A stretch of DNA of 64,000 nt from a virus (IMGVR_UViG_3300028048_002144); one strand, 5' to 3'; positions 2,991 through 48,261 are shown, counted from the stretch's first letter. Notes: generated by a model from the letters alone, not told the origin. Numbers and translations are program-made.

Positions 2991-3536
2991 TTACTTCATT
3001 TCATAGCCTTCTTTTATAGTAATAGTAGAGAAACTTTCAATAGTTGAAAGCTTTTTCTTTAGTTCGTCAATTGTCTTGCCATGATATCCGATAAGAATGC
3101 CTGGATTAGATGAAACTAATAATATATCTACCTTATTAGACTCATCCTTAGAAAGTACACACTGAATATTAGCGTATTTCTGAAGGTTGTTTTTATGAAC
3201 CCATTCCTGTATTTCATATAAAATTTTATTGATTCCATTTATTTCATATAAATTTTTGTTATTCGTATGGTCGTTATGAGGTACATCAGCTTTTCTTTCG
3301 CTCTTTGTCATATTATTGCATACAGTATCAATCATCTTCTGCTGCGTTTGAACGATTTCAAAAAGTTTATCAATGCAGTCATACATAATCTCACGTTCAT
3401 TATAACGATGATGCCAGCTGCTCGAACCATGACTATGATCAGTATTTCGGACATCACTTAATCGCCAGTCGATTGATTCGATACACTTTGCAACACTCTC
3501 TTTCATGTTTTTAATATAAGCTTTGTCTATTGCCAT
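2991..3536 (-). CDS. protein with C-terminal KH (ribosomal S3-like) RNA-binding domain
   Basis: ILLVSSNPGILIGYHGKTIDELKKKL fits the KH GxxG loop; start MAIDK after AAAGGAG. Confidence 0.65.
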   Translation of the reverse strand: MAIDKAYIKNMKESVAKCIESIDWRLSDVRNTDHSHGSSSWHHRYNEREIMYDCIDKLFEIVQTQQKMIDTVCNNMTKSERKADVPHNDHTNNKNLYEINGINKILYEIQEWVHKNNLQKYANIQCVLSKDESNKVDILLVSSNPGILIGYHGKTIDELKKKLSTIESFSTITIKEGYEMK

Positions 3537-3660
3537 TATTTTTTCTCCTTTCAAACTTTAAAATTCTAGTATTAATATGAATGATTTTTATAATAAAAAA
3601 AATACCCAGGAGCTATGCTCTAAGATATTTTTCTTATTGTCTTATTAATCACCCTTAAAT

Positions 3661-7031: not shown

Positions 7032-7051
7032 ATATTCTATTCAATGTCTAT

Positions 7052-7290: not shown

Positions 7291-7379
7291 AGTAGGTGAT
7301 CGGAATCGAACCGATGATCTATAAATAAGACGTACAGTTTTGCAGACTGCCTTCTCGAACCAACAGAGAATTCACCTAC
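7291..7379 (-). tRNA. trnC: tRNA-Cys(GCA) with atypical long variable arm
   Basis: acceptor GTAGGTG/CACCTAC, U73, GCAGT-CTGCAAA-ACTGT, 18-nt variable region. Confidence 0.8.
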
Positions 7380-8842: not shown

Positions 8843-8865
8843 ATTTTCGTTCTCCTTATAAAAAG

Positions 8866-8951
8866 GGTGAAGGAGGAGACTCGAACTCCCACGAGCATTA
8901 CACTCGGCAGATCCACAATCTGCTGCGTCTTCCAATTTCGCCACCAACACC
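8866..8951 (-). tRNA. trnH: tRNA-His(GUG) with atypical long variable arm
   Basis: G-1:C73, GCAGA-TTGTGGA-TCTGC, V-arm CGAGT-GTAAT-GCTCG; two U:U mismatches in acceptor. Confidence 0.8.
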
Positions 8952-9029: not shown

Positions 9030-9067
9030 ATGTTATAAAATTATTACAACTAGATTTAGGAAGGTCT

Positions 9068-9138
9068 CTCCCCAGTACAGGACTCGAACCTTGATTTCTT
9101 CGTTTCCAAAGTGTTCTACCGATTGAACTAACCGGGGA
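9068..9138 (-). ncRNA. tRNA-like RNA with GAAA tetraloop replacing the anticodon loop
   Basis: TCCCCGG/CTGGGGA acceptor, G73, normal D-arm, CTTTG-GAAA-CGAAG arm, TTCGAGT T-loop. Confidence 0.65.
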
Positions 9139-9163
9139 TTCGCCTTCCATGTCTAATTGTTTA

Positions 9164-9236
<73 letters not shown>

Positions 9237-9250
9237 CTATTAATAATTAA

Positions 9251-9356
9251 TGTCTACGGTCCGAAAACGCCTCGTCTGCAGCCGATACCTTTTATACTGA
9301 AATAACAGTTTAAGCATGGCCAAAAACTGTGCAAACGTATACACAAGGAATAGACA
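9251..9356 (-). ncRNA. candidate structured RNA between tRNAs
   Basis: nested stems TGTCTA/TAGACA, CGTTTGCA/TGCAGACG, CAGTTT/AAACTG. Confidence 0.4.
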
Positions 9357-9360
9357 GTAG

Positions 9361-11920: not shown

Positions 11921-11953
11921 TATTGCAATATCTTCCCTTTCTAAAACACTGAG

Positions 11954-12037
11954 CAGGCGTGGAGAGATTCGAACTCTCAGTATCCTTTCGGAGTCATGGT
12001 TTTGGAGACCACTGCTGTTCCGTTGAGCCACACGCCT
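11954..12037 (-). tRNA. trnW: tRNA-Trp(CCA) with atypical long variable arm
   Basis: AGGCGTG/CACGCCT, G73, GTGGT-CTCCAAA-ACCAT, V-arm TCC-GAAA-GGA. Confidence 0.85.
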
Positions 12038-12092
12038 ATAAATAAGTATCAATATTAAGCAATTGTCTAAAATACGAGGTCTCAATACATCA

Positions 12093-12177
12093 GGAGCGTT
12101 GCAGGGAATTGAACCCTAAACTAGTATTTTCCTTCGGCTCAGAACCGCTGTGCTATCCGTTACACCAAACAACGCTC
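12093..12177 (-). ncRNA. atypical tRNA-like RNA (CAGCGGTYCTGA family, copy 1)
   Basis: 8-bp acceptor GAGCGTTG/CAACGCTC, D- and T-arms present, no canonical anticodon arm. Confidence 0.6.
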
Positions 12178-12358: not shown

Positions 12359-12525
12359 ATAATTAATGCAGCTCCTCTTGTCTCGAACCTTTACAGATAG
12401 GAAAGTTAGCTATTCTTTCGTTCGTCTGTTTTCCCCAGATCAAATATGCTGGTCTGTCAGGGGACTCAAGGATACTGCTTTAACTAGGTCGTAATGCCTA
12501 AAATACGAGGTCACAATGCCCCAAG

Positions 12526-12597
12526 CGACTCTACTGGGAATCGAACCCAAATCTTCGGATAGACAGTCCGACATAATAGCCGTTATACCATAGAGCC
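12526..12597 (-). tRNA. trnD: tRNA-Asp(GUC)
   Basis: TCGGA-CTGTCTA-TCCGA, G73. Confidence 0.9.
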
Positions 12598-12859
12598 ATA
12601 GTGCCTACCAATTCACATTATCATACATGGGGGGAGGTTCAAATATGTATGAATATGCTATAAGCTCGGCTTTGCTTCCATTTCAAAAGGAGAATTCTAA
12701 TAATGAAAATAAACGCAGTAAACTATAAACAAAATGAAAGGGGAATACTAAAACAAACACAAAAAAAGTGAATGGTATTTAGTAAACATGCGCTTATTCT
12801 ATTATTAGAGTGCATCTAATGGGATTCGAACCCATACTCTATTGCTAGAAAGGGATTTT

Positions 12860-13545
12860 CGTACCACTATATCTTTCAATACCCATCTGTGTATATGGTT
12901 TGTGGTCTGGAATCAATCTTTGCCCACTACTAAAAGTGTTGGGGCAGGACATGTATATTCTCTACGCACTCACTTAATAGTGATTGGCACGGTATTGCTA
13001 CTAGGAAAAGTTTCACCGTTTAGTGTCCATTCAGCGTAAATATTCCTATTTACCTGCTCATGCTTACCAGAGTAATTCAACTTCTTTTAGTCTGTTTTCC
13101 ATTCGATATAAAAGTTTATAACTATGACTACCTACTTTTCCTGAACATGATTTACTACAAGTTAAATAACGTGTTCTACCACGATTTATATCAACATAAA
13201 ATCTTGTCCATTTATCGCTTTTCATAACAAACTTAGCACCACAAATAATACAGGTTTCAATTGTATCTTTGTATTTTCTAGAATGTTGTTTTTGATGCTC
13301 ACCATGAACTAAAATTTCTAAATTAGATAAATCATTATTATCTGGGTTTTCGTCTTTATGATGAACATCTTCTTCTGGCTTTAATGGCCTGCCTAGCTTC
13401 TTCGCCATTAAAATTCGAGGATATGAAATTACATGTGGTTTGCCATTTTCATCTACACAGTAAGCTCTCCACCTGCCATCCCTGCATTTGTAAGCTTTTT
13501 TAATAAAAAGATCCATATGCTATCCTCTCTAAGGCCTTACTATCT
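12860..13545 (-). mobile_element. group I intron (IC3/trnL-type) carrying a homing endonuclease ORF
   Basis: inserted after U34, terminal G; P-like CTAAACGGTGAAAC, Q-like AATACCGTGCC, R-like GTAGAGAAT, S-like AAGATTGATTCC; P3 GGACA/TGTCC. Confidence 0.85.
13064..13516 (-). CDS. intron-encoded HNH homing endonuclease with C-terminal Zn-finger
   Basis: EEDVHHKDENPDNNDLSNLEIL HNH motif; CIIC...CSKSC; GAGAGG RBS. Confidence 0.85.
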   Translation of the reverse strand: MDLFIKKAYKCRDGRWRAYCVDENGKPHVISYPRILMAKKLGRPLKPEEDVHHKDENPDNNDLSNLEILVHGEHQKQHSRKYKDTIETCIICGAKFVMKSDKWTRFYVDINRGRTRYLTCSKSCSGKVGSHSYKLLYRMENRLKEVELLW

Positions 13546-13831
13546 AAGTCCCTCGTGTCTGCCAGTTCCACCATAGATGCATATTTGTCTACTTAAAGAA
13601 CCATTAGAAATGTAGACTTTATTCTTTTTAATATAAGGATTTATGTTAATCGTACTACCCTATATTTGGAACCTGGTCAAAAATAAATAATAGATCAAAA
13701 TAATAATAATATTGGTTAGTTAACCTTCGTCTCTAATTCTGTTTGTAAATCTTCTTAAACCCATATCATAAGTCTTCCTTTCTGTAGCCTATTTTTTATT
13801 AATAAAATGAGTTTAATGCTTCATTTTTTAA

Positions 13832-13903
13832 CAGCCCATACTGGATTCGAACCAGTGCATCAGGGAGTCAAATTCCCCTGCCTTACCGCTTGGCTAATGA
13901 GCT
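13832..13903 (-). tRNA. trnQ: tRNA-Gln(UUG)
   Basis: GGGGA-ATTTGAC-TCCCT; Gln-type D-arm GCCAAGCGGTAAGGC. Confidence 0.88.
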
Positions 13904-14076
13904 AGATTGTGGGGTTTATCAAACCCCACATGTAAAGATTGAGTTATCTCAAAAAAATAATGAGATAAAGGGTAGGTAGGATTTCTACCATGAAAGAAAG
14001 TATAAAATCAACATTGAGATATCAAAAAGTATCAAAAATATATCTCGAACTATAGTGAAATGGATACTTTTTATAG

Positions 14077-14150
14077 CGGATTCGCCAGGACTCGAACCTG
14101 GGACATCATGATTAACAGTCATGCGTTCTAACCGACTGAACTACGAATCC
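14077..14150 (-). tRNA. trnN: tRNA-Asn(GUU)
   Basis: CATGA-CTGTTAA-TCATG, G73. Confidence 0.92.
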
Positions 14151-14335
14151 ATACAGGAAACATCACTTTGATAAATGACGTTTCCAGGACATCCTTCTAC
14201 AACATGGTAGACGATTATTCGAGGATTTTGATACCGCAGTTCCACAACTGCGTACAACAAACAGAAAGGAAGGTGACGTTACGTGAAGTGCGACCCCTAT
14301 CTGTCTATTGCATTAAATTGTAAGAGACAGAGTGT

Positions 14336-14943
14336 TACATAAACACTCTATAAGAATAACTGCCGAACTCGTTTTACTAACTTCGCTCTATTCTTAATAG
14401 CACCACTATATTCGATCACATGGAAGATACATGCGAACCTAAATTGTACGGGTTTAGGCTATGTACCCTGGCAAGCCATGAAAGGACTGATACCTTTAAC
14501 TTTCACCACCATTCGCATTAAAATAACAGATCCTTATAAATCTTCTGTTTTTAAGATTTTAATGCAAGCATTAGGCTACTCGTACAGACTTCTATTCTTA
14601 TTGGTAAGAATTTCTTCTTACATCTATGCTTTACCTACTTATTTGATTATTCCAACTGCAGTATCCCTTGTTATCACACGCAGGGCTTACAGGGTTCCCT
14701 ACCTATTTCTAGTGGGCTTATTATCGCAGGTGATAGTTTGTCTTATCTTTAGCTTCGTCTATCAAGATATGCCATAACCAACGTTTGAGAGGTTCCTCTC
14801 TTTTATCTCTATTATTACTAATAAAGAAGTGGGCTCTCACATACACTATCGCATATGCTTATCCTTTGATTGCATTATGCCCTAGCAGAGTTGGCGACTC
14901 TTCTGCACTAGGATGGCAATTATTCTTATAGAATGTTTATGTA
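14336..14943 (-). ncRNA. large structured RNA, ROOL-like (~608 nt)
   Basis: 29-bp terminal helix that is perfect (2 G:U) only on the minus strand; many internal hairpins; inside tRNA array; family assignment from size and context only. Confidence 0.6.
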
Positions 14944-14978
14944 TTTTTCAATGTGCATATTAAGCTATTAAAAGCTTA

Positions 14979-15058
14979 GGGGCACCTAGAGAGTCGAACT
15001 CTAACCGGTGTTTTGTCTTTCAGGACCGCTGATGTGCTACCGTTACACTAAAATGCCC
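14979..15058 (-). ncRNA. atypical tRNA-like RNA (CAGCGGTYCTGA family, copy 2)
   Basis: GGGCATT/GGTGCCC acceptor plus C, D-arm GTGT-AACGGTA-GCAC, TCAG-CGGTC-CTGA short arm, TAGAG-TTCGACT-CTCTA T-arm. Confidence 0.6.
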
Positions 15059-15185
15059 ATACTCAATGTTCTATTTAATGTGGGAACAAAGAAGCCACAG
15101 GGTAAAAGAAATGAATGAATTAACAATCCAAGAAATCTTTGATATGAAGTCTTGAAATGATGCTGCCGACAATAACGACAGCAAG

Positions 15186-15259
15186 TGGACCATGTTGGAC
15201 TCGAACCAACGACAGCTCGCTTATGAGGCGAGTGGTCTAACCAACTGACCTAATGGTCC
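15186..15259 (-). tRNA. tRNA(CAU), probably Ile2 (lysidine), else elongator Met
   Basis: GGACCAT/ATGGTCC acceptor, CTCGC-CTCATAA-GCGAG. Confidence 0.85.
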
Positions 15260-15387
15260 ATGCGAGAGACCAAAAATAAACAAGAGAAAGGAGACTGGTC
15301 TCTCTAAAACTATGAAAAAAATATTGATTTATTAAAGCAGAAAGCCCTATGCTCATATAAAACTTACGATAAGACCTTCTGCCTTAA

Positions 15388-15469
15388 TGACCCTGATGGG
15401 ACTCGAACCCACATGAGCTACGCTCGCATGATTAAAAGTCATGTGCCATACCAATTAGGCGACAGAGTC
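15388..15469 (-). tRNA. trnK: tRNA-Lys(UUU) with atypical long variable arm
   Basis: CATGA-CTTTTAA-TCATG, V-arm GAGC-GTA-GCTC, A73. Confidence 0.85.
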
Positions 15470-15552
15470 ATAGTGCAGATATTCTCTGCACTAAAAACGT
15501 ATTTTGAAAGGAGTATATGCAACAGATGATTTTACTTTATCTATCTTGTTGA

Positions 15553-15575
15553 CATATTTAATATGACAGATATAC
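15553..15575 (-). promoter_or_regulatory. putative promoter of the RNA operon
   Basis: TCTGTCATATTAAATATG, the element-wide motif, at the head of the array. Confidence 0.55.
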
Positions 15576-15605
15576 TCCCTTTTCTTCATTTTTGTTATGA
15601 TTTTT

Positions 15606-47342: not shown

Positions 47343-47891
47343 TTACACATACGAATTCTGTAAAAACTCTATTGTTTTTTCGTGGTAATTAGCATTCTCC
47401 GTCTTACTCATTAAATCGAACGCTTCTTCTCTAGTTAATGCGTCTCGATATGGTCTTGACGATGTTAATGCTTCATACACATCTATCGTATGCAGGATCT
47501 TTGCATATTCTAGTATCTTTTCCGTTTTCTTAAATTCAACCGGCATTAATGTTTCAGGATTTTCAGTATGATGATACAGTATGATGTATCGAACTTCTTC
47601 ACTTATGTTCGTTTCATTTAATAGTTCAAAACTAAAATATGCATGGTAGTTAACTATCTTTCTTTCAAGATTAGTTAATCGTCCAGGTTTATTCAGAATG
47701 CTTTCTGATAGGTAATATTTTCCTACGTCATGGAATAATGCTGCGGTAGATAAAACCCCTTCATCTAAATTTAGGGTTTGTTCTAAAACCTTCGCTATGT
47801 TATACATTCTGATACTGTGTCTTCGGGTAATTAAGGGTAATCTCTCTACGAGTTCACTTTCCTTATCTCCCCACTGGTCAAAATTTTCCAT
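47343..47891 (-). CDS. HD-GYP-type phosphohydrolase (GYP motif degenerate)
   Basis: HSIR, ALFHDVGK, ILNKPGRLT, YHH-E, DVYEALTSSRPYR. Confidence 0.8.
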   Translation of the reverse strand: MENFDQWGDKESELVERLPLITRRHSIRMYNIAKVLEQTLNLDEGVLSTAALFHDVGKYYLSESILNKPGRLTNLERKIVNYHAYFSFELLNETNISEEVRYIILYHHTENPETLMPVEFKKTEKILEYAKILHTIDVYEALTSSRPYRDALTREEAFDLMSKTENANYHEKTIEFLQNSYV

Positions 47892-48261
47892 CTATTTCTT
47901 AGCAGGATACCTCGATTTTTATAAGTCAAGAATCCCCTACGTCTCCTTTCTGTAAATTACTGATATGTTTATTGCTATAAGCCGGTACATACCAACCGTA
48001 ATGCAGCCTTCGCCAATGTTATTATGAGGTTTTTGTAAGCAACACTGTTCCTACCCATCAGAACTGTTTAATCACTTACCTTAGAGCTACAGACTAGGCT
48101 GTACATCCGTAGGTAACTATACATGACAATGAAACTGCTAATGTTTCATTGTATATTCTCATATAACGTAGTCAGTTAAGACTTAGGCTAGTCAATTAAG
48201 GCTTTTACAAGCCTCCACTTCAATGATTATGAAATAATCGTAAGTGGTGGGTTATTGACAT
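47892..48261 (-). mobile_element. ORF-less IscB-type element with full-length omegaRNA (HEARO-like)
   Basis: GTCAATAACCC...GGCTTG...TTGACTAGCCTAAG...CTACGTT...CCTACGGATG...CCTAGTCTGTAGCTCT...AACATTGGCGAAGG; RBS GAAAGGAG runs straight into right-end hairpin. Confidence 0.8.

Follow-up and report, generated by a model that had tools for sequence, protein, structure and literature searches.

The spacers of a plasmid RNA operon expose a small set of partly conserved pyrimidine tracts that resemble the anti-Shine–Dalgarno (anti-SD) sequence at the 3′ end of 16S ribosomal RNA (rRNA). The operon lies in a 64,000-nt stretch of DNA labelled as viral (IMGVR_UViG_3300028048_002144), referred to here as the window, of which positions 12,598 to 15,552 are considered. 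The window has a GC content of ~32% and carries almost all of its genes on the minus strand; its proteins include a Rep3 initiator, a VirD4-type coupling protein and a VirB4-like ATPase. Exact protein matches place it on a ~205-kb metagenomic contig and on another that is 99.99% identical to the first. Judging from these genes and this setting, the host replicon is a large, low-GC plasmid-like element of the conjugative type rather than a phage. Within it, 12600–15550 is the promoter-proximal 3 kb of an ~8.6-kb minus-strand RNA operon that comprises transfer RNAs (tRNAs) without encoded CCA, an intron-split tRNA-Leu, a tRNA-like RNA and a ROOL RNA, and every feature of these 3 kb is on the minus strand (Table 1). 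On the leading reading, to which we assign a probability of about 0.3, the exposed CU tracts work by base pairing to purine tracts of the SD type.

Complements of the ribosome-binding site in the spacers

An initial annotation had treated 12600–15550 as a series of spacers possibly encoding translation-silencing small RNAs (sRNAs). Genuine spacers do exist and amount to ~1.2 kb (1197–1211 nt). The other ~60% consists of RNA genes, since the ROOL RNA, the split tRNA-Leu with its HNH open reading frame (ORF), the tRNA-like RNA and five tRNAs were found there. Genuine genes of the element use the ribosome-binding site (RBS) consensus (A)GAAAGGAG, followed by 7–8 nt and then ATG. The spacer tracts (C)CUCCUUUC on the array transcript are the exact complement of this consensus and are identical to the 3′ tail of 16S rRNA (GGATCACCTCCTTTCT); one spacer reads UCACCUUCCUUUCU where the rRNA has UCACCUCCUUUCU. 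C/U-rich anti-SD tracts, as the initial annotation proposed, are thus present on the array RNA. The tail was taken from an Enterococcus rRNA operon (L008), which is an rRNA region rather than a comparable array and served solely as a reference for the 16S tail and for boxA. A derivation of the tracts from a former 16S 3′ end beside tRNAs was rejected because their flanks are unlike rRNA.

Eight SD motifs had been listed on the plus strand, and seven of them lie where they were placed; the eighth, read as GAAAGGGAG at ~15285, is actually GAAAGGAG at 15286–15293. Four to six of the sites are convincing, which leaves the proposed array of eight such RNAs unsupported. The weak ones are 13975, where the motif is a GGTAG/CTACC hairpin stem, 15099, where it is AGGG only, and 14264, which is largely paired on the transcript.

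Comparison with shuffled spacers, a check proposed alongside the initial annotation, does reveal enrichment. The element's own RBS word, AAAGG[AG]G, has four plus-strand copies in the true spacers against 0.26 expected, a 15-fold excess that none of 3000 dinucleotide shuffles reaches, and is absent from their minus strand. Short SD five-mers show a modest excess on the plus strand (11 vs 4.6 expected, p = 0.013, dinucleotide shuffles) and are depleted on the array strand (2 vs 7.6 expected, p = 0.016). Control intergenic DNA between minus-strand genes (4650 nt) has the reverse pattern, with AAAGG[AG]G found 0 times on the plus and 8 times on the minus strand. Across the 64 kb, 8-mers of the 16S tail occur in five copies on the minus strand, three of them inside the ~1.2 kb of true spacer sequence. 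Purine runs in general are 1.2–1.45-fold over-represented in the spacers, and SD-core words 2-fold. GAAAGG comes second in an unbiased scan of hexamers (4 vs 0.49 expected), about what the best of 4096 words reaches by chance. Because GAAAGG would fail correction over all hexamers, the significance rests on the word being the RBS consensus a priori.

The most over-represented spacer hexamer in that scan is UAGACA (6 vs 0.6 expected), found on the minus strand at 7045, 9150, 9251, 12064, 13586 and 14302. It may be a leader or processing signal, given its placement 5–21 nt upstream of five tRNA 5′ ends.

Several lines of evidence agree with the annotation that the array (minus) strand is the RNA strand, namely the direction of the tRNAs, the promoter motif at 15560–15567, better folding of the minus strand, G-U pairs and strand-specific covariation. 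Most spacers fold much better as minus-strand RNA, and the G-U pairs of the conserved stems would be C-A on the plus strand. Minimum energies are −47.7 kcal/mol (z = −4.4) on the minus strand against −36.5 (z = −1.2) on the plus strand for the Leu-to-Asp spacer, −38.9 kcal/mol (z = −5.2) against only −19.6 for the Lys-to-Met spacer, and −27.0 (z = −3.1) against −21.1 for the Met-to-tRNA-like spacer; the Asn-to-Gln spacer has z = −4.6 on the minus and −4.3 on the plus strand.

Four of the tracts are predicted to be unpaired on the array RNA, with P(unpaired) of 0.91–1.0 against spacer means of ~0.46. Both hairpins described in the initial annotation fold and display a tract. The first (12621–12652) has an 8-bp stem and a 16-nt loop that contains CCUCCCCCC at 12629–12637 (P = 0.91), and the second (15264–15304) has a 10-bp stem and a 21-nt loop that contains CUCCUUUC at 15286–15293 (P = 0.94). 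The other two are CCCCUUUC at 12736–12743 (P = 0.95) and the CUCCUUUC copy at 15506–15513 in the leader (P = 1.00). Exposure is lower for the CUCCUUUU tract at 12685–12692 (P = 0.60) and for the tract at 13972 in the Asn-to-Gln spacer (P = 0.56, equal to the average of that spacer); the tract at 15099 is partly paired, and that at 14264 mostly so (P = 0.33).

Partial conservation of the tracts in related arrays

Three relatives were used for comparison. A distant one (L003), whose backbone proteins are only ~25% identical to those of the window element, was found with a pattern for the long-arm tRNA-Lys, and two closer ones, L009 (88.6% identical) and L010 (82.9% identical), were reached through members of the 90% cluster to which the gene upstream of the array belongs. 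L001 and L002 are one and the same element (99.99% identical) and have no comparative value. Among genome and viral contigs we found no close relatives of the flanking exonuclease and no matches to the spacer patterns. When phages and plasmids were searched by blastn with the spacers, the ROOL RNA or the Lys region, the only matches, if any, were to tRNAs.

The leader tract is identical in both close relatives at 21 of 21 positions, with flanks that are ~67% identical. Against L010, identity along the promoter-proximal part runs from the variable leader (14/21) through the CU tract block (21/21) and the hairpin before tRNA-Lys (22/22) to the tRNA-Lys itself (45/66); behind the same leader, L010 has a different tRNA-Lys in place of the long-arm one. 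Further along, the 5′ hairpin of the Lys-to-Met spacer matches at 46/54, its linker at 18/28 and the loop CU tract at 15286 at 13/14, followed by the Met-to-tRNA-like spacer (116/122) and the tRNA-like RNA (55/78). The pairs of the 5′ hairpin 15333–15386 are kept through G-U/G-C/A-U changes, including two double compensatory changes when L009 is included. In the stem of the hairpin with the 15286 tract, a compensatory change turns A-U into G-C.

In L003 the gene order is Lys, spacer, tRNA, ROOL, Asn. An 80-nt non-tRNA element is shared between window 14255–14330 and L003 2071–2144 (77.5% identical), and the corresponding hairpin (14254–14311) has a consensus 11-bp stem with three G-U pairs and a loop with the CU tract at its end; this tract is nearly the same as the 16S 3′ tail. 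Sequence comparison thus supports three tracts, those in the leader, in the Lys-to-Met loop and in the ROOL-to-Asn hairpin. The three tracts of the Leu-to-Asp spacer are covered by no relative among those obtained, because L011 diverges directly after tRNA-Leu.

Two tracts that resemble the 16S tail, ACCUCCUU and CCACCUCCUUUG, are present in array-strand spacers of L016 (5800–5975), a phage-like tRNA array that has only tRNA-Leu and tRNA-Asn in common with the window. These hint that the feature may occur elsewhere. A generalisation to arrays that share the tRNA-Leu module was dropped, as L016 alone has tail-like tracts.

Possible action of the tracts and competing explanations

During tRNA maturation, RNase Z cuts after the discriminator base and RNase P cuts at +1. 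No tRNA of the array encodes CCA. Given the flanking tRNAs and this established processing, RNase Z acting after each upstream tRNA and RNase P acting before each downstream tRNA would free the spacers as fragments. Such fragments would be capped by hairpins at both ends, for example by 15333–15386 and 15264–15304, and might be stable. Four to six spacers would then expose the (C)CUCCUUUC tract as a functional element of the array RNA, rather than as the complement of RBSs of plus-strand mini-genes. The exposed tract could pair with SD-type purine tracts in the manner of Firmicute sRNAs with C-rich loops, and might thereby affect translation; its partners might be mRNAs of the host or of the element itself, or the ORFs that lie within the operon. 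A bolder proposal, which we regard as doubtful, is that the spacers are produced in abundance as hairpin-capped copies of the 16S 3′ tail and serve as SD competitors or sponges, or as decoys for factors that recognise the anti-SD, forming with the tRNAs and the ROOL nanocage RNA a module that reprograms host translation initiation.

When the spacer RNAs were compared with 31 RBS regions of the element, the sum of mean pairing was −114.5 against −107.6 ± 2.0 for shuffled spacers, a value that none of 60 shuffles reached. Several observations count against the pairing interpretation. This excess comes chiefly from two spacers (z = −4.4 and −2.7, the former being the leader), and the best duplexes with the 31 regions are no better than those of shuffled spacers, so that what emerges is generic SD complementarity and no specific target. 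An anti-SD of 8–9 nt would itself be generic, with the tail of the ribosome as its competitor. At E ≤ 10, the spacers match no Rfam sRNA family beyond noise. The extended word AAAGG[AG]G is absent from the other half of the array, for which reason a claim that the enrichment is replicated there was dropped; the excess of short words in that half is partly due to a duplicated 23-nt trailer and to a helix flanking a tRNA-like RNA. Foldability alone does not set the spacers apart, since control intergenic gaps fold just as well (median z of −3.7), and a description of the spacers as unusually structured was accordingly abandoned. The mosaic of block identity with L010 could partly reflect recombination rather than selection. 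The sole tract common to the distant relative, at 14264, is mostly paired in cis, and the other arrays with the tRNA-Leu module (L011–L016) are mostly without such tracts, only L016 having two. Finally, a boxA-like function fits the conserved leader tract about as well as an anti-SD does.

It is quite possible, at well under even odds, that the tracts have no function at all, being a few pyrimidine runs in U-rich spacers that resemble an anti-SD by chance, were picked by eye and owe their conservation to recent recombination. The near-chance rank of GAAAGG among 4096 hexamers, the general 1.2–1.45-fold excess of purine/pyrimidine runs and the lack of the extended word in the other array half all fit this account, as do the count in L003 (6 sites vs 4.2 expected) and the identity mosaic of L010, in which some blocks are near 95% and others near 65%. 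It has difficulty with the 15-fold excess of an a priori word, with a strand pattern opposite to that of control intergenic DNA, with a leader tract inside a 43-nt identity island flanked by two ~67% segments, with the compensatory change around the 15286 loop, and with the recurrence of a tract-bearing hairpin in an element as remote as L003. Much less probable is a reading in which the plus strand is transcribed and its SD motifs are true RBSs of micropeptide genes antisense to the tRNA operon. The geometry is canonical at three sites (GGGGGGAGG-7-ATG, 27 aa; AAAAGGAG-10-ATG, 22 aa; GAAAGGAAGG-9-GTG, 19 aa), and the element conserved in L003 can be read on the plus strand as AAGGAG-7-ATG opening a 68-aa ORF whose frame is kept for the first ~15 codons. 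However, ORF length differs between the window (19 aa) and L003 (68 aa), and a search of 5.8 billion proteins found no relative of the 68-aa product. Start codons follow SD-like sites at chance frequency (5 of 14 have one 5–10 nt downstream vs a 27% background, p = 0.32), and neither perfect GAAAGGAG word has a properly spaced one; the coupling to start codons, and with it the anti-start-codon component of the initial annotation, is not borne out. Promoter-like sites on the plus strand are no more frequent than expected by chance, and the single strong one (15549–15576) is directed away from the array. With this promoter scan, the non-conserved ORF length, the better folding of the minus strand and the reliance of conserved stems on G-U pairs, plus-strand mini-genes are unlikely. 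A CsrA-type GGA sponge on the plus strand was likewise rejected, as there is no sign of plus-strand transcription.

The remaining two alternatives accept that the tracts work on the array strand. They might be sites where an RNase, an RNA chaperone or some other RNA-binding protein recognises or processes the RNA, or cis partners within the precursor (the ROOL RNA, the odd tRNAs), which help to fold, cut or stabilise it and have no role in translation. A hairpin 1–24 nt before nearly every tRNA, spacers that start with a hairpin flush to the upstream tRNA 3′ end, and the conservation of spacer hairpins with covariation would all suit such a role, as would the second repeated leader word, UAGACA, which is even more enriched and placed just upstream of five tRNAs. 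GUUUDU follows 1–7 nt after all four CCUUUC tracts, but in L010 this half is changed (GUUUAU to AUUAAU) whereas the CU tract is kept; the bipartite motif CCUUUC-N1-7-GUUUDU, present at 4/4 in the window, was rejected on that ground. No partner purine tract was found on the array strand, where SD-like words are depleted, and the match to the RBS complement is left unexplained. We consider a pure processing role rather unlikely. The other alternative is that the leader tract, perhaps with some internal ones, is a boxA-like NusB/NusE loading site for processive antitermination of the rRNA type, the RBS complementarity being incidental. Copies of boxA occur in rrn operons, in both leader and spacer, as well as in phage nut sites. 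Here the promoter motif of an untranslated 8.6-kb operon is followed after ~47 nt by the leader tract, which is predicted to be fully unpaired and forms a perfectly conserved island amid diverged flanks; the tract matches the Enterococcus rrn leader boxA of L008 (ACCTTTGAAAACTG vs CTCCTTTCAAAATAC here) at 10/13 over the core, and the 12685 tract (CUCCUUUUGAAAU) has the same shape. Against these stand a C where boxA keeps a purine after UUU (G in Firmicutes, A in E. coli), a match count at chance level when the pattern is loosened to admit this C (2 vs 2.25 expected window-wide), and the missing A-rich 3′ half of the tracts at 15286, 14264 and 12736. A position in the loop of a hairpin whose stem covaries, as seen for one tract, is not boxA-like, and the exact 8–9-nt identity with the RBS complement is left unaccounted for. 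We regard boxA as a serious rival, if an unlikely one.

The RNA operon, its neighbours and known systems

Table 1 Features of the promoter-proximal part of the RNA operon (window coordinates, listed in the direction of transcription)
Feature	Coordinates	Strand	Support or remark
Promoter-like motif GTCATATT, element-wide, heading the RNA operon	15560–15567	−	34 matches vs 16.9 expected in the window
5′ leader: unpaired CUCCUUUC tract (plus-strand GAAAGGAG, 15506–15513), then hairpin 15472–15494	15471–15559	−	
tRNA-Lys(UUU), long variable arm	15387–15470	−	ARAGORN and Rfam, 59.2 bits; 93% identical in L003
Lys-to-Met spacer: flush 5′ hairpin 15333–15386, variable linker, hairpin 15264–15304	15260–15386	−	
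tRNA-Met(CAU), elongator-type	15185–15259	−	ARAGORN and Rfam, 69.9 bits; 73/75 identical in L010
Met-to-tRNA-like spacer, unusually conserved; holds the weak AGGG at 15099 of the initial annotation	15063–15184	−	
tRNA-like RNA, non-canonical central domain, paralogue of 12093–12175	14985–15062	−	Read from sequence
ROOL RNA (RF03087)	14336–14943	−	205.4 bits vs gathering score 99.1 over 14346–14936
Hairpin in the ROOL-to-Asn spacer, loop ending in UCACCUUCCUUUC (plus-strand 14264–14276)	14254–14311	−	Conserved
tRNA-Asn(GUU)	14076–14150	−	ARAGORN and Rfam, 74.2 bits
Asn-to-Gln spacer, hairpins throughout	13905–14075	−	
tRNA-Gln(UUG)	13831–13904	−	ARAGORN and Rfam, 57.9 bits
tRNA-Leu(UAA), split after U34 by a 686-nt intron (12860–13545)	12810–13580	−	ARAGORN with introns allowed
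HNH endonuclease ORF inside the tRNA-Leu intron	13064–13516	−	PF13392 (HNH_3), E = 2.3e-6
Leu-to-Asp spacer: tracts CCCCUUUC (plus 12736–12743), CUCCUUUU (12685–12692) and CCUCCCCCC (loop of hairpin 12621–12652)	12598–12809	−	
tRNA-Asp(GUC), lower boundary of the stretch	12525–12597	−	ARAGORN and Rfam, 55.7 bits

Matches to the promoter-like motif GTCATATT lie mostly upstream of minus-strand units, and the copy that heads the operon is identical in L009 and L010. Overlapping it on the plus strand, 15549–15576 is a near-consensus sigma-70-type promoter (TTGACA-16-TATACT, 11/12) antisense to a 116-aa gene. The leader hairpin stops 1 nt short of tRNA-Lys. The ROOL match exceeds the gathering threshold and is full-length (model positions 1–574), and the RNA is closed by a 29-bp helix formed by the inverted repeat 14336–14364/14915–14943. 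The tRNA-like RNA at 14985–15062 received no ARAGORN or Rfam call in the window, and its L010 counterpart is called as a tRNA. The Met-to-tRNA-like spacer beside it (15063–15184) is a candidate noncoding RNA (ncRNA) with no Rfam family match.

ARAGORN places the tRNA-Leu intron as gactt-intron-aaaat, with an intron end of ...ggtacg. This fits the expected site, between U34 and A35, with a 5′ exon ending in U, an intron ending in G and an endonuclease ORF. The intron is probably of group I, a class inferred from these features only, because the Rfam Intron_gpI model gave no match even at E ≤ 10. The entire tRNA-Leu module is 72–83% identical in L011–L016, which are phage-like metagenomic contigs, and its recurrence there among different tRNA neighbours makes it look like a mobile tRNA-plus-intron cassette.

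Other tRNAs of the array are also unusual. Long variable arms in the style of class II are present on tRNAs with Lys, Trp, His and Cys anticodons (15387–15470, 11953–12037, 8865–8950 and 7291–7379; in L003, 2331–2413), and the array has a tRNA-Ser with anticodon ACU. L003 carries a suppressor-type tRNA (3516–3586) with anticodon UUA, reading UAA, which is preceded by an unpaired UCCUCCUC tract. The Glu-to-Thr spacer (window 9238–9359 and 9030–9162; L003 480–1100) is ~85% identical between the window and L003, above the tRNAs themselves. A tRNA-like RNA in this region (9069–9137) is enclosed by a conserved extended helix (ACAAUUAGA...GGAAGG/CCUUCC...UCUAGUUGU), and the tRNA-Thr counterpart in L003 has an insertion of ~150 nt. 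The 23-nt trailer occurs in two copies (12064–12086 and 12495–12517; 91% identical; minus strand UUGWGACCUCGUAUUUUAGRCA), which sit 17–18 nt downstream of a Gln(CUG)-like tRNA and of tRNA-Asp.

Embedded in the tRNA array is a gene for a kinase-like protein with a HipA C-terminal domain (PF07804, 9544–10545); a copy that is >90% identical is found on a 9.8-kb NCBI contig, where it adjoins a ClpP-like gene. Elsewhere in the window, a HEARO RNA (RF02033, 128.6 bits), an IscB/HNH-associated guide-type RNA, adjoins a 182-aa ORF (47998–48259 and 47343–47891).

The tRNA arrays of phages and plasmids are usually seen as codon-supply devices, and their spacers are overlooked. In the present array selection appears to maintain at least three spacer elements (the leader tract, the covarying hairpin with its loop tract and the hairpin in common with the remote L003), each of which displays the exact RBS complement. 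If the tracts act on translation initiation, mobile elements would hold a second, RNA-only lever on host translation beside their tRNAs, which would be a lead to what ROOL-type operons do. If the tracts are boxA-like instead, plasmid ncRNA operons would borrow the antitermination of rRNA operons. Like the boxA of rRNA operons and nut sites, the leader tract is an unpaired U/C-rich element that closely follows the promoter in a long untranslated operon and recurs inside it; it differs in its C for the conserved purine after UUU, in the lack of the A-rich half from most copies and in the occurrence of one copy in a covarying hairpin loop. The tRNA cluster of phage T4 contains stable non-tRNA RNAs between its tRNA genes, released by tRNA processing enzymes. 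The present array likewise has non-tRNA RNAs among the tRNA genes of a mobile element, with no sequence relation to those of T4, which have no known anti-SD feature.

The Firmicute sRNAs with C-rich regions, RoxS/RsaE and FsrA, carry short, unpaired, C/U-rich motifs complementary to the SD, which often lie in hairpin loops and may be present several times per RNA (PMC8216469). The spacers described here resemble them in their unpaired motifs in 16-nt and 21-nt loops and in the three motifs of the Leu-to-Asp spacer. Unlike these sRNAs, they have no Rfam sRNA match, no promoter and terminator of their own and no specific target found; their release from a tRNA precursor is presumed, and they are plasmid-borne. 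Closer in origin is the 3′ETS of the E. coli glyW-cysT-leuZ operon, presented in the relevant passage of PMC7213987 (citing Lalaouna et al. 2015) as a tRNA-operon spacer freed by processing and proposed to act by base pairing. The spacers of the present array also lie in a tRNA operon with a promoter motif and are bounded by tRNA processing sites. In contrast to 3′ETS-leuZ, which that passage treats as a sponge of specific Hfq-dependent sRNAs, several spacers here show generic RBS complementarity, and their fragments are predicted only.

ROOL RNAs that adjoin tRNA islands, apparently co-transcribed with them, are already known from the sections of PMC5737381 and PMC12286853 that deal with them. 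Those sections make no mention of conserved RBS-complementary tracts in the flanking spacers, and no dedicated literature search was made. As in the tRNA islands of phages, prophages and megaplasmids for which these accounts describe ROOL and GOLLD, the ROOL RNA here (205 bits) lies inside a tRNA array. What differs is the carrier, here a plasmid-like replicon of the conjugative type that encodes Rep3, VirD4 and VirB4.

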